DNA of 64,000 bases from positions 128,001 to 192,000 of the forward strand of contig JBFWVL010000006.1 of assembly GCA_050246755.1 (NCBI GenBank), read 5' to 3'. Below are positions 7,321-39,504 of this stretch, piece by piece. This stretch comes from Bacteriovoracia bacterium. GTDB taxonomy: Bacteria; Bdellovibrionota; UBA1018; CAIPTA01. How positions within the stretch are numbered: the stretch's first letter is position 1; the number at the start of each line of letters is the position of its first letter. The position numbers and the translations under genes are program-made. Under the pieces are notes generated by a model, which had not been told where the DNA came from, did not search any database, and worked only from the letters and a program-made list of their open reading frames with translations.

Positions 7321-7351
7321 TTGGCGAGCCTCAGACGCCATTGTCCGAACG
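7321..7351 (+). other. left attachment site (crossover GA at 7326-7327, element arm to 7351)
   Basis: TTGGC-GA-GCCTCAGACGCCAT-TGTCCGAACG; TGGC is the reverse complement of a tRNA 3' end GCCA. Confidence 0.82.
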
Positions 7352-7847
7352 CCTGTATCCTATTGATACTAAAGCGTTTATTTTGAAAGAGTCAAATAGA
7401 ATTTCCCCTGAAATTGTCGATCTATACAAAAAAGGCTGGTCTTTGCGTGACATCGCTCGGGAATACGGGTGCTCAAGACACAAGGTCTACTCCCAGGTAA
7501 AAAAAGCTGGAGTAAAGCTCCGAGAAAATTCCGCTCAAGCAACGCCCAATCGAAAAAACGGCGTTAAGCAGAATGTCTTGCCCTACTATGGGTTTTGCTA
7601 CTTCGAGGGACGCATTACTCCTGATCCCCGAGAGTTCCCTGCTTTGAAACTCATTCATCGTTTATGGAAGGATCAACGCACTATCCATCAAATTACCCTT
7701 GAGCTAAACCGAGTTAAAATTCCGTCCCGTCAACGGAAGCAATGGAGTTGGGCGGCGGTGAAGAATATCGTGCAGAGGTTTGAACAGGGCATCGTTACCC
7801 TTCATGGCGGAAGCCGTTATAAACTAAACAGCTTTTCAAAAAAATAG
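7326..7847 (+). CDS. detached C-terminal part of the serine integrase (HTH + recombinase-like domain), in frame with 37648 ORF after excision
   Basis: LYKKGWSLRDIAREYGCSR HTH and PYYGF..PDPRE..LKLI..LN..IPSR..WS..VKNI recombinase-domain pattern; frame matches the integrase across the GA crossover. Confidence 0.8.
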   Translation, partial: EPQTPLSERLYPIDTKAFILKESNRISPEIVDLYKKGWSLRDIAREYGCSRHKVYSQVKKAGVKLRENSAQATPNRKNGVKQNVLPYYGFCYFEGRITPDPREFPALKLIHRLWKDQRTIHQITLELNRVKIPSRQRKQWSWAAVKNIVQRFEQGIVTLHGGSRYKLNSFSKK

Positions 7848-7866
7848 ACATTGAGGAGAAAACACG

Positions 7867-8097
7867 ATGAACGCAGTTAATGGAATCTTTGTTGCTCTCG
7901 CTTTGGTCTTTGGTGGTGGCTACGCCCTGGATAAAATCTATGTTTCTGTGAAAGCGGCGGCAATCGAACGCATTCACAGAGGTCAACCCTCTTTAGGGCA
8001 ATTTACAAATCGGCTGACTTGCTCGAAGTTCACGCCGTCCGGCGAATATGTCGCAACGAAATGCGGGCGTACAAAAATAAAGCGGGAAATTCATTAG
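7867..8097 (+). CDS. small membrane-anchored hypothetical protein
   Basis: GAGGAG RBS, N-terminal hydrophobic helix. Confidence 0.65.
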   Translation: MNAVNGIFVALALVFGGGYALDKIYVSVKAAAIERIHRGQPSLGQFTNRLTCSKFTPSGEYVATKCGRTKIKREIH

Positions 8098-8163
8098 GAG
8101 CATGTATCTGCTTGAACATTGACCGCCTCGGTTTATGCGATAGAATTTTTCAAGGAGTTGTGT

Positions 8164-8652
8164 ATGCAAATAATACGAAGAGCGAAGCCTGATGATTCTT
8201 TTGGAATCCACGAGGCACACATGCGTTCAATTTGTGAAGTTTGCTCGAAAGATCATTCGCCGGACGAGATTCGAGGCTGGGGGCATCGGCCCTCTCGTGA
8301 AGATCAAAGGCTTAATGCTATACAGAATCAGTTCGTGTGGGTCGTCGATAACGGTGGGAAAATTGAAGGCTATGGACACTTAGCTTTGATTTCAGAAAAC
8401 GGTCATACTCGCGGTCACATCATGGGCCTCTATTTGGTTCCCGAAGCCAATGGCAAGGGGCTGGGTACAGCAATCGCTCGTGAAATGCTTGCTGAAGCCA
8501 AAAGACAAAACGCTATTGCAGTTAGCCTTGAATCAACACTCACTGCTCATAGCTTTTATGAGAAAATGGGATTCACGGATTCGGGGGACCAAGCAACTAT
8601 CGAACTTGGCGGGTCGAAGATTCGATACATTCCGATGAAACTGGTTTTGTAA
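8164..8652 (+). CDS. GNAT family N-acetyltransferase
   Basis: LYLVPEANGKGLGT motif A, STLTAHSFYEKMGF motif B; AAGGAG RBS. Confidence 0.9.
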   Translation: MQIIRRAKPDDSFGIHEAHMRSICEVCSKDHSPDEIRGWGHRPSREDQRLNAIQNQFVWVVDNGGKIEGYGHLALISENGHTRGHIMGLYLVPEANGKGLGTAIAREMLAEAKRQNAIAVSLESTLTAHSFYEKMGFTDSGDQATIELGGSKIRYIPMKLVL

Positions 8653-8847
8653 TGGCTACAAGCAGTGAGTTGGGATCACTTACCGAGCGAGGCTTTTAGA
8701 GGCCGGATTCGGAGAACTTGATCGACCGCTAGCCCCTTTCAGGGTCCAAAAGGCTGCATTGGGAATGATCGCACCCATGACAGAACGATTCCTTTCTGAG
8801 GCGCTTGTTCCGCTAAGTTTATCGGATCTCAGCCGACGATTCGTTAA

Positions 8848-37101: not shown

Positions 37102-37121
37102 TAGTAACAAATTTGTTACTA
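37102..37121. promoter_or_regulatory. perfect 20-bp palindrome, putative operator
   Basis: TAGTAACAAATTTGTTACTA directly upstream of the HTH gene. Confidence 0.65.
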
Positions 37122-37133
37122 TATTGAAATGCA

Positions 37134-37385
37134 ATGAAGGAATCGGAACGAACAGTAAAAAAAATTAGGGATGGGCTCCTCGATGAGCTGAATCAGGAAG
37201 TCGAAAACCGTTTCGGTAGCAATAAAGCTAAAGCCGCCGAAGCGGTTGCCATGAACCGGATTCAGTTTACGAATCTTTGTAACGAGAAGGTGGGAGCCAC
37301 GATAGATAAGTTAATTCAGATTGGCGCAACACTCGGTTGGAAGATTGAGCTAACCGTCAATCGAAAGCCAGGAGACAAAAAGTAG
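37134..37385 (+). CDS. XRE-like HTH regulator
   Basis: KAKAAEAVAMNRIQFTNLCN..TIDKLIQIGATLG. Confidence 0.7.
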   Translation: MKESERTVKKIRDGLLDELNQEVENRFGSNKAKAAEAVAMNRIQFTNLCNEKVGATIDKLIQIGATLGWKIELTVNRKPGDKK

Positions 37386-37427
37386 TTAGATTAAAAAAAA
37401 CTGAACATTACTCCGTGGGAGTGATGA

Positions 37428-37658
37428 GTGCCAGGCTCTAAGAGAGCTTCGAGGAAACGGGCCAAGCGGAAGCCGCCACGCGAATCGAAAACATTGCGAA
37501 ATGCAAAGGTTATCGAGGTTGTGTTTTTGAGAGATGAATCTGTTTCGAGTGAAATTAGGATCACAGAGGCAAAAAATCTTATTGCCCAAATGATCGAGTT
37601 ATCCCATCGGCGCGGAAGACCCCGCAAGGTGGAAGAGGAGAGCGAAGATGCAGCGTAA
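37428..37658 (+). CDS. small basic protein upstream of the integrase
   Basis: Arg/Lys-rich, RRGRPRK motif, overlaps the integrase start. Confidence 0.55.
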   Translation: MPGSKRASRKRAKRKPPRESKTLRNAKVIEVVFLRDESVSSEIRITEAKNLIAQMIELSHRRGRPRKVEEESEDAA

Positions 37659-39504
37659 AATTGGCGCATATATTCGAGTGAGTACGGACGAGCAAGCGGC
37701 TGCCTTTGAGGGCTCCCTTGATAACCAACGCTACCGAGCTAAGAGCTATGTTGACCTGAAAAATTCGCAAGAAAAAGGCTGGGGCTCGATTGTCGAGTTT
37801 TACGTTGACGATGGCTATTCGGCTAAAGATACGAACCGGCCCGCATATCGGCGCATGATCTCTGATCTGAAAAGAAAGAAGATCGACTTTATTCTTGTGT
37901 CGGACCTGTCTCGTCTGTCGCGGAATCTTTTGGATTTTTGTGAACTGCTTAATTTTCTGGAAAAGCACAAGGCCAACTTTCTTTCGATTAAAGAGCAGTT
38001 CGACACAAGCACCTCTGTCGGGCGTTTGATGGTTTATCTGGTGATTACGCTTGCGCAGTTCGAGCGTGAGCAGACTTCGGAGAGGGTTTCGCTTGGAGTT
38101 TACGCCAGAGGTATGCGCGGTCTATTAAATGGTGCCCGTCCGATTCTTGGATTTGATAAGCATCCGGATAAGCCCGGTTCGTATGTTATTAACCGGAAGG
38201 AAGCTGAATCCGTCAAAAAAATCTTCCGATTCTTTATGAATACGGGCTCTAGGGCGAAAACGATTCAAGAGTTGGAACGAGAAGGAATCAAGCCTAAGTT
38301 GAGCGGCAAATATGGTTCCCTCAAAATCGAAGAAAAATGGAGTGCTCAAACTTTGGGGAATCTTCTGAAATCCGCCGCATATGTGGGGTTTCATGAGGTT
38401 AATAAGGCCAACAAAAATGCAGATCAAGAGAAGCTAAAGGCACACCAGCGGTATCAACTCGTCAAAGCCACTTGGCCCGCGATCATTTCAGAGGCCGAGT
38501 TTTACGAAGCACAACGGCTGCTCCAAGAGGCGCAGAAATTGGAGCGTGTCAGGTTAGAGGGGGCGGAAAACCGTTTTTATATCCTGTCGGGTATCCTTCG
38601 CTGTTGTGATTGCGGGCATCCCTTGGTTGGGCAAGCGGCCCACGGTGAAAATTCGGTCCACCGATACTATGGACATACTCGTGCAGGCTCGAAGCTCGAT
38701 TGCAAGCACAAGCGGATTCCGGCTGAAGAGGTCGAAGCAGCAGTGCTTGAATACCTATGGAATGGAACTCGGCAAGCGGGCTATCTGAGCCAGATTGAGG
38801 AAAATATCAAGGCGATGGGTAATGTCCATTCTATCGACGTTGCTCGGGAGAAACGGACTCTGAAGGACAGCATTAACAGCGTGAAAATTCAGCGCGACAA
38901 TCTGTTAAAGATGCAAGGCCGGTCAACTGACGAGGAGGCCCTTGAGGAAATGGCTAAGATGTTCGAGGTCAAAACCAAGGAACTCGTGGGGCTGGAACGG
39001 CAGTTAAAGGAGCTGGAAGATAAGCCGGAGCAGACCCAGCTCGTTTCCGAATCCAAACAGGAGATCGAGGAGCGGCTGAAGGAGTTTGAGCGAGGATTTA
39101 AGAAGGCCAATGGTGCGATGAAAAAACGCCTGATCCGCCGGGTGCTCAAGCAGGTGCTTGTGACCCCGGAGGGGTTGAAAATATATATGCTTTTGGCCGG
39201 TCAAGAGGACATTCCGAATCACCAGCTTAAGTTAGTGCGAGAGGAGAGCGTGGGGGGCGATAAAACGCCCCTATACGCCTTAACCAAACGGGCCTCCGGG
39301 GATGATTCTAAGTTGTCGGTCCTCCGTTCGGACATTAGAAAGGTTGGTGACTCCAGCAGGATTCGAACCTGCGGCCCCCTGCTTAGAAGGCAGGTGCTCT
39401 ATCCAACTGAGCTATGGAGTCATGGACAAATTTTCTTGAACGTCTATAAAGGGTTGTATGAAAAAAGCATCCAGGAGGCAAGCAAAGGGCCTGCCTTTTT
39501 ATAA
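37648..39504 (+). CDS. large serine recombinase/integrase (integrated form; last 51 aa read antisense through the tRNA)
   Basis: YIRVST, DDGYSAK..RP, LSRLSR, recombinase domain, CCDCG zinc ribbon, coiled coil. Confidence 0.95.
   Translation: MQRKIGAYIRVSTDEQAAAFEGSLDNQRYRAKSYVDLKNSQEKGWGSIVEFYVDDGYSAKDTNRPAYRRMISDLKRKKIDFILVSDLSRLSRNLLDFCELLNFLEKHKANFLSIKEQFDTSTSVGRLMVYLVITLAQFEREQTSERVSLGVYARGMRGLLNGARPILGFDKHPDKPGSYVINRKEAESVKKIFRFFMNTGSRAKTIQELEREGIKPKLSGKYGSLKIEEKWSAQTLGNLLKSAAYVGFHEVNKANKNADQEKLKAHQRYQLVKATWPAIISEAEFYEAQRLLQEAQKLERVRLEGAENRFYILSGILRCCDCGHPLVGQAAHGENSVHRYYGHTRAGSKLDCKHKRIPAEEVEAAVLEYLWNGTRQAGYLSQIEENIKAMGNVHSIDVAREKRTLKDSINSVKIQRDNLLKMQGRSTDEEALEEMAKMFEVKTKELVGLERQLKELEDKPEQTQLVSESKQEIEERLKEFERGFKKANGAMKKRLIRRVLKQVLVTPEGLKIYMLLAGQEDIPNHQLKLVREESVGGDKTPLYALTKRASGDDSKLSVLRSDIRKVGDSSRIRTCGPLLRRQVLYPTELWSHGQIFLNVYKGLYEKSIQEASKGPAFL
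39325..39350 (+). other. right attachment site (element arm + GA crossover)
   Basis: CGTTCGGACA-TTAGAAAGGTTGGT-GA; supplies the ACCA 3' end of the tRNA. Confidence 0.82.
39345..39421 (-). tRNA. tRNA-Arg (anticodon UCU)
   Basis: GACTCCA acceptor stem, D arm AGCTCAGTTGGATAGAGC, anticodon loop CTTCTAA, GTTCGAATC T loop, 3' ACCA. Confidence 0.97.

Follow-up and report, generated by a model that had tools for sequence, protein, structure and literature searches.

A large serine integrase gene in an integrative and conjugative element of a Bacteriovoracia bacterium, probably split by its own attP at a tRNA-Arg(tct) gene

In the canonical large serine integrases, attP lies outside the integrase gene, one protein serves both states of the element, and separate directionality factors are used. 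We know of none among them that carries an additional module made of a helix-turn-helix (HTH) and half of a Recombinase domain, and to our knowledge the 3' ends of tRNA genes are not their usual targets. In the mycobacteriophages BPs, Brujita, and Charlie, attP is placed inside a coding gene, and the free and the integrated states give proteins with different C-termini; in this integration-dependent immunity it is the repressor gene that is split, and a tyrosine integrase serves as the recombinase. The locus described here is unlike those of the three phages in that the recombinase itself appears to be split. It is an integrative and conjugative element (ICE) of ~32 kb, inserted at the 3' end of a tRNA-Arg(tct) gene in a stretch of 64,000 nucleotides, hereafter the window, that covers positions 128,001 to 192,000 of contig JBFWVL010000006.1 of a Bacteriovoracia bacterium (GenBank assembly GCA_050246755.1).

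The closest described systems are the "suicidal" tyrosine integrases of archaea, of the SSV1, pTN3, and pT26-2 type. According to passages of PMC7253208 that deal with them, attP lies within the integrase open reading frame (ORF) and this att site is also translated, the integrase gene is divided by integration into a tRNA gene, with an N part and a C part at the two ends of the element, both halves are called inactive pseudogenes, and tandem insertion can rebuild or hybridise the gene; the same passages state that the type is to date confined to archaea and discuss it in terms of state-dependent directionality control. As far as those passages go, the family of the window element shares with the archaeal type an attP in the ORF, a tRNA target, and hybrid junctions. 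It differs in that the enzyme is a serine recombinase and bacterial, and in that the gene is cut in a linker past a complete catalytic and DNA-binding core, with only an accessory domain lost. By its Pfam matches and by a model of a homolog, the N part here retains all canonical domains, and it may be active. The att-split layout appears to be new for serine integrases, and the family is a bacterial serine-type counterpart of the suicidal tyrosine integrases. Word searches of the main texts of open-access papers brought up no precedent for a serine integrase whose own ORF contains attP, which does not prove that one is absent from print, and in the parts of the catalogue paper PMC10083194 that the terms tried could reach there was no passage on tRNA targets or C-terminal regions.

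We consider it highly probable, from the reading frames and the att sites, that the integrase ORF contains attP, that integration severs an HTH and a Recombinase-like domain from the enzyme, and that the circular form would encode a protein of 740 residues. At the right end of the element, the integrase is an ORF of 618 residues (37648-39504, plus strand) with matches to Resolvase PF00239 (E = 4e-34, residues 7-154), Recombinase PF07508 (E = 1.1e-16), and Zn_ribbon_recom PF13408 (E = 4.1e-11), which is the domain order of phiC31, Bxb1, A118/LI, and SPbeta SprA; NCBIfam models of large serine recombinases are matched as well, at well below the model cutoffs. Residue S12, the presumed catalytic serine nucleophile, is invariant in 56 aligned homologs, and integrase homologs that carry names are labeled Bdellovibrionaceae, Pseudobdellovibrionaceae, and Bdellovibrio. 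Judged by these matches the enzyme is a large serine recombinase and not a tyrosine recombinase, and it is predicted to catalyse attP x attB recombination, with integration read from the insertion itself.

Only the first 567 residues of this ORF are encoded by the element (37648-39348, plus strand), and they comprise the catalytic domain, the Recombinase domain, the zinc ribbon with its coiled coil, and a linker. Because the target tRNA-Arg(tct) gene (39345-39421) is on the minus strand, the final 51 codons of the integrase run through the tRNA antisense, and this host-encoded tail with its stop codon (39349-39504, plus strand) is made of antisense tRNA and spacer. At the left end, a plus-strand frame opens with an ATG at 7239 in host DNA and ends at 7847. 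Its element part, 7326-7847, codes for 173 residues (7326-7844) and a stop, has no ATG of its own, and contains further linker, an HTH (residues 28-60), and half of a Recombinase-like domain (residues 90-154); we refer to it as the C-terminal domain (CTD) of the integrase. A dinucleotide GA is found at both ends, and it occupies codon positions 1-2 both in the integrase frame (GA at 39349-39350; 39349-37648 = 1701) and in the frame from 7239 (GA at 7326-7327; 87 nt). An earlier note on this DNA, made from the letters alone, had claimed this shared codon phase, an integrated form of 618 residues with a 51-residue tail read antisense through the tRNA, and a circle that would code for an integrase of 567 + 173 = 740 residues. 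The ORF arithmetic and the ORF and tRNA coordinates agree with all of this, and the 16 elements compared below are alike at the junction.

The predicted attP is, as in the canonical enzymes, a site of ~50 bp in which two imperfect inverted arms flank a crossover of 2 bp, here GA. The P arm (39325-39348, plus strand) has TGGT at its 3' end and holds a 10-bp inverted arm at 39325-39334; the P' arm (7328-7351, plus strand), which codes for the first residues of the CTD, holds the partner at 7342-7351. These 10-bp segments match exactly as inverted copies and occupy symmetric positions 15-24 nt from GA, so the 50-bp site that the earlier note had drawn, with perfect 10-bp inverted arms each reaching to 24 nt from GA, is there in the sequence. 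Against a null of 2800 arm pairs picked at random from the same loci (mean 6.5, maximum 14), the window attP with 14 of 26 positions paired only equals the null maximum, and its strength is the unbroken run of 10, for which a rough estimate puts the chance at that fixed symmetric position at ~1e-5.

The position of the exchange can be read from the two cores. That of attL (7321-7327, plus strand) reads TTGG-C-GA, and the host flank to its left is the displaced discriminator and CCA of the tRNA; attR reads TTGG-T-GA, its GA (39349-39350, plus strand) falling on antisense tRNA positions 72-71. The tRNA-Arg(tct) gene adjoins dapF (39458-40300) in the window and likewise in relatives, and in two relatives of the same genus this locus is unoccupied, with no integrase or CTD within ~1.3-2.4 kb past the 3' end of the tRNA. 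Both have TGGC before GA, as in attL, where attR has TGGT. Since the base of the relatives is that of attL, the T of attR is element-derived and the exchange took place to the right of it; since attL and attR diverge again directly past GA, GA is the crossover, and the symmetry of the arms agrees. The placement of the crossover at GA proposed beforehand is thus upheld by the C at 7325, in a comparison that covers the tRNA side of the locus. With TGGT as the 3' end of its P arm, the element supplies the tRNA with a new discriminator and CCA. A third relative of the same genus (G007:C56, L047) has at positions 8-1249 a different large serine recombinase, 28% identical, that reads into the tRNA-Arg(tct) gene at 1354-1430; as it is occupied by a different integrase, this locus was excluded from the unoccupied set. 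The tRNA-Arg(tct)-dapF locus is a landing site common to distinct integrase lineages.

As a separate observation on the two ends, a 12-bp exact direct repeat is found at 39139-39150 and 7466-7477, ~210 nt before the crossover in the integrase gene and ~140 nt after it in the DNA coding for the HTH. About 0.03 such matches are expected by chance, and it is the sole repeat besides the 10-bp arms that joins both ends; we draw no conclusion from it.

To see how general the layout is, we used 401 genomes of the phylum, taking CTD matches at E ≤ 1e-10 and integrase core matches at E ≤ 1e-40, with 3 integrase candidates scored per genome. The CTD was matched in 69 genomes and the integrase core in 141. 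The junction analysis covers 16 elements, namely that of the window and 15 pairs from other genomes in which CTD and integrase share contig and strand and the CTD is 5-45 kb upstream; pairs that span two contigs were left out, as was a second pair of G325:C1, which fits the criteria and has a stop in its integrase. The cores were located by a windowed diagonal search and a TGGN-anchored search, in place of a noisy longest-shared-word search. In 16 of 16, the integrase and CTD frames meet at a dinucleotide common to attL and attR, directly 3' of TGGT, and in 15 of them the codon position of this dinucleotide is identical in both frames. In the other, G375:C1, the conserved motif continues in phase at the junction and the domain beyond it is out of frame by one, in our reading the result of a frameshift acquired later or of an error in sequencing. 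The reconstituted arms pair at 12-22 of 26 positions, with at least 14, the null maximum, in 13 of the 16, the arm center being the best on the chosen diagonal, a choice that inflates the observed scores somewhat relative to the random-pair null. ARAGORN calls a tRNA at the junction in 12 of the 16, the other four being cases of a contig end, Ns, or no call, and there are seven targets: Arg-tct, Arg-cct, Ala-ggc, Met-cat, Pro-tgg, Pro-ggg, and Phe-gaa.

The linkers vary widely among the elements in both length and sequence, and for that reason the kept phase is not a matter of trivial inheritance. Identity to the window proteins co-varies between core and CTD (Spearman 0.69, n = 15). On the element side, an ATG precedes the HTH in only 1 of 15 CTDs; five, that of the window included, have no ATG at all, and six lack ATG, GTG, and TTG alike before the HTH, with none of the three in the first 45 codons of five of those six. 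In every element the CTD frame is open back to the crossover. The layout of attP in the ORF, with its phase, is by these comparisons conserved in 16 elements at seven tRNA species. From one host to another, the flanks downstream of the target tRNAs show no conservation.

The search for uninterrupted homologs of about 740 residues, which the earlier note had offered as a check, had a mixed outcome: open frames of 731-784 residues were found, but the four for which there is DNA are hybrid junctions. The protein P0116 (736 residues, on a contig of 29.8 kb) has a core 43% identical to that of the window and a tail 36% identical to the CTD (E = 7e-29), P0271 (731 residues) has a tail 67% and a core 30% identical, and P0124 is a contig-cut piece across the junction. 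A scan of the genomes added three long open frames with both parts, of 784, 758, and 747 residues. These three and the contig of P0271 (L072) have TGGT followed by a dinucleotide at codon position 1 of the junction, and their arms pair at only 8-11 of 26 positions, from which we take the four to be junctions between different elements. In two of the three from the genome scan, a second, split integrase and a tRNA-Met are found 23-30 kb downstream on the same contig. On these grounds the four were rejected as excised forms, and we read the fused ORFs as tandem elements at one tRNA, with the core of one integrase in frame with the CTD of the next. One of them, G375:C57, where genes for relaxase, fused integrase, cargo, regulator, binding protein, YcaO, kinase, and VirB4 follow one another, shows one element's right end joined to the left end of another; a terminal overlap of this contig was looked for and not found. 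That all four hybrid junctions are open is evidence for a general phase rule. An unbroken native attP in frame was found in two relics: G378:C37, with arms paired at 20 of 26, a 254-residue open frame, and a decayed integrase upstream, and L075, with arms paired at 18 of 26 and a stop 13 codons upstream. The metagenome scan, of 18 loci, gave one hybrid fused ORF (L072) and one relic (L075), the others being attL-type or contig-cut; the assembled genome contigs scanned with P0271 gave no match, and the plasmid and phage collections held no relative of the CTD at E ≤ 1e-6.

The CTD matches HTH_23 (E = 1.8e-7, 31 bits) and, at 26.1 bits against a cutoff of 21.1, the PF07508 Recombinase profile over positions 3-51 of 102. 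It had been described beforehand as an HTH with a second recombinase domain. The HTH and the match to PF07508 stand, but what is present of the domain is merely its N-terminal half, a beta-hairpin and three helices. The model of the CTD, made with a 56-sequence alignment, has a mean predicted local distance difference test (pLDDT) score of 87.4, with residues 1-27 unstructured, a three-helix HTH at 28-60, and the beta-hairpin and three helices at 90-154. None of the Foldseek matches in the PDB reaches E = 1e-3; they comprise the Recombinase domains of integrases from SPbeta, Listeria, and Bxb1, paired domains, and the bipartite DNA-binding domain of Tc3 transposase. The matches are weak yet coherent, and on that basis the model is most likely that of a bipartite DNA-binding module. 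Families across the phylum have kept the domain, and some of its residues are invariant or nearly so. In a model of the fused P0116 (pLDDT 85.8), a folded core of residues 1-528, with long helices at 381-487 between the strands of the zinc ribbon, is joined to the folded CTD by a linker of 54 residues (529-582, pLDDT <50). By alignment, the residue equivalent to the crossover is at ~568, inside this linker, and the linker position of attP accounts for the double use of a single DNA stretch as recombination site and as coding sequence.

A cycle can be proposed from this arrangement. Recombination with attB at GA would cut the integrase gene within the linker-coding attP; the 567-residue core would remain at the right end and acquire an arbitrary tail read antisense through the tRNA, and the 173-residue CTD, with no start codon of its own, would be moved 32 kb off to the left end and be silent there. 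Excision would restore the in-frame fusion, and solely the circle would encode the 740-residue enzyme. After transfer, the circular element would express the full-length enzyme, which would recombine attP with the 3' end of the tRNA gene. We infer that the window element is still capable of excision and that integration in a new host would be the work of the full-length protein, the CTD adding DNA contacts, either to attB and the tRNA DNA or to flanking sites, and its loss upon integration altering the behavior of the enzyme. The truncated form is probably able to excise with a directionality factor; among the small ORFs upstream of the integrase, where such a factor was sought, there is no informative Pfam match.

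As to what the CTD is for, non-conserved flanks downstream of the target tRNAs would leave one half of attB poorly defined, and extra DNA contacts could help there; our favored guess is that the CTD aids target capture in this way. By analogy with the archaeal integrases, the split may also be a state-dependent control of directionality. In engineered fusions of an integrase with a recombination directionality factor, an addition at the C-terminus of a serine integrase changes its directionality, according to portions of PMC5737554; unlike the man-made additions described in those portions, the natural CTD resembles DNA-binding domains rather than any known directionality factor, and the state that has it is the one in need of integration. 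The widest form of the proposal, which we put forward as tentative and would ourselves call doubtful, is that a widespread family of bacterial ICE serine integrases encodes the recombination state in its own protein: the form made from the circle, with two extra DNA-binding domains, would integrate at tRNA 3' ends, the canonical core left after integration would be altered in activity, the change would act as a built-in directionality switch that decides between integration and excision with no separate factor, and tandem insertions would swap CTDs. The swapping would follow from the position of the cut in the linker, by which tandem insertions at one tRNA exchange CTDs between integrases.

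Besides the two cautions on the arm scores of the window and of the survey and the poor arm pairing of the four fused ORFs, several observations weigh against the reading of a gene split by its attP and restored by excision. The excised circle of the window ICE is deduced from the ends of the element, and the full-length gene has turned up in no intact, non-hybrid copy as DNA, the two native unbroken attP sites being in decayed genes. The empty attB of the window ICE is likewise a prediction, as the gene on the left flank (6221-7288) has no counterpart in 10 relatives of the order. The reverse order, with the integrase upstream of the CTD, is found in three co-oriented pairs (G310:C8, G250:C10, and G043:C12), and in the two of these that were inspected there is no tRNA between the parts. 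Stop codons occur in 19 of 114 CTD matches, and one of the 16 analyzed CTDs, that of G375:C1, is frameshifted. Five complete genomes have a CTD and no integrase detectable with the N-terminal 300 residues. The truncated integrase retains all of the canonical domains, which is to say that the CTD may be dispensable.

Two of these observations have side aspects of their own. In G310:C8 (L069, 47224-53563), an integrase core, a fragment of a small serine recombinase 1 kb downstream of it, and a CTD 4.3 kb downstream are on one strand with no tRNA in between, and the junction itself may have been interrupted there. As to the orphan CTDs, three with an intact ORF, from complete genomes of one genus, were inspected (G109:C1:2992543-2996431, G395:C1:2961760-2969511, and G260:C1:3040869-3044718), one of them named "recombinase family protein" in its public record. 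All three are 3.3-7.2 kb from a tRNA-Arg(tct) or tRNA-Pro(tgg) in attL orientation, so they were rejected as stand-alone genes and are taken to be decayed remnants.

A first alternative to a gene still restored by excision is that the element is a fixed, immobile island, with the in-frame layout a fossil: the ancestral gene was fused, and the source genome never rebuilds it. The unobserved circle would be expected of such an island, other genomes hold relics of 3-7 kb with the CTD alone beside the target tRNA, and a group II intron and an rve-like ORF are inside the window element. Still, we regard this as unlikely, given that neither att arm is damaged and the two share a perfect 10-bp inverted pair, that the integrase, CTD, and transfer genes are all open, and that 78-92% identical integrases are found at tRNA genes of other metagenomic hosts.

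By a second alternative, attP merely overlaps a dispensable 3' end of the gene, the core of ~567 residues works in both states, and the CTD is a passenger or a decaying extension. The completeness of the core, the stops and the frameshift in CTDs, and the five genomes with orphans all suit it. A decaying extension would hardly be expected, though, to have a confidently predicted fold and invariant residues across families, to keep its phase in 16 of 16 elements despite differing linkers, to diverge along with the core, and to stay open at four hybrid junctions, and we think this account distinctly improbable. That the left-end ORF is instead an independent small gene, such as a regulator or directionality factor, with the frame continuity a side effect of the attP sequence, seems to us very improbable indeed, since, even if public records give pieces of 160-200 residues as a separate "recombinase family protein" or "hypothetical protein", most database members have 150-300 residues, and the window frame is opened by the ATG at 7239 in host DNA, no start is conserved on the element side, the N-terminal extensions of the database members derive from unrelated flanks and vary between 3 and 127 residues in length, the frames are open back to the crossover in every element, and fused ORFs exist.

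Serine integrases are central tools of genome engineering, and their directionality is understood through coiled-coil contacts and separate directionality factors. For this class, an attP in the integrase's own reading frame, with the free and the integrated element coding for different enzymes, would be a new regulatory layout, and an accessory DNA-binding module of an HTH and half a Recombinase domain has been undescribed on a serine integrase. The family also targets tRNA 3' ends systematically, with the element restoring the discriminator and CCA. If tandem swapping of CTDs is real, it would make hybrid enzymes and could drive changes of target. In practice, annotation now lists the two halves as unrelated genes under names like "recombinase family protein", and catalogues of integrases and att sites that use the integrated ORF as it is would list a truncated enzyme whose tail is false. 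The interest is greatest for specialists in site-specific recombination and mobile elements.

The body of the ICE (7328-39348, no strand assigned) is delimited by a GC fraction of 0.45-0.53 between the element ends versus 0.54-0.58 in the flanks and by its transfer genes, all on the plus strand. These are a VirB4/TraC-type ATPase of type IV secretion (25414-27846; PF19044, E = 3.2e-23; PF11130, E = 1.3e-17; PF03135, E = 1.3e-7), a VirB9/CagX-like ORF and a VirB10/TrbI-like ORF (32121-33871), an FtsK/SpoIIIE-type DNA translocase that is a candidate coupling protein (33858-35369; PF01580, E = 2.3e-22), and a Replic_Relax family protein that is a candidate relaxase (35373-36128; 27.3 bits, cutoff 25.3). 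VirB4/TraC, TrbI (39.6 bits, cutoff 35), FtsK/SpoIIIE, and Replic_Relax pass their Pfam cutoffs, and CagX, at 24.8 bits, falls short of its cutoff of 34.2. By this gene content, the integrase, and the att sites, the element is an ICE with predicted transfer, and the label given to it in the earlier note is borne out by these four matches and the GC dip. Its cargo consists of a sigma-54 response regulator, a solute-binding protein, a YcaO-like protein, a histidine kinase, a GNAT acetyltransferase, and a LysR regulator.

The group II intron reverse transcriptase/maturase (28550-29881, plus strand; RVT_1, E = 6.7e-41; GIIM, E = 1.3e-13) is placed between the VirB4 gene and the later mating-pair genes. 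Near the left end of the ICE, a 384-residue ORF on the minus strand (8888-10042) has a weak match to the rve integrase core (23.1 bits against a cutoff of 32.6) and may be a transposase remnant. The part of the cargo at 17759-23394, which holds the sigma-54 response regulator, the solute-binding protein, the YcaO-like protein, and the histidine kinase, resembles positions 4746-10469 of G375:C57, a different element of the phylum, in that ORFs of similar size follow in the same order, and it may be a conserved accessory module of such ICEs. On other contigs, the source genome has a second large serine recombinase (G000:C7:96997-98361, L004; 36% identical, in a 672-residue open frame) and a weak second CTD-like ORF (G000:C3:309759-310157, L002; 26% identical, E = 2.8e-7).

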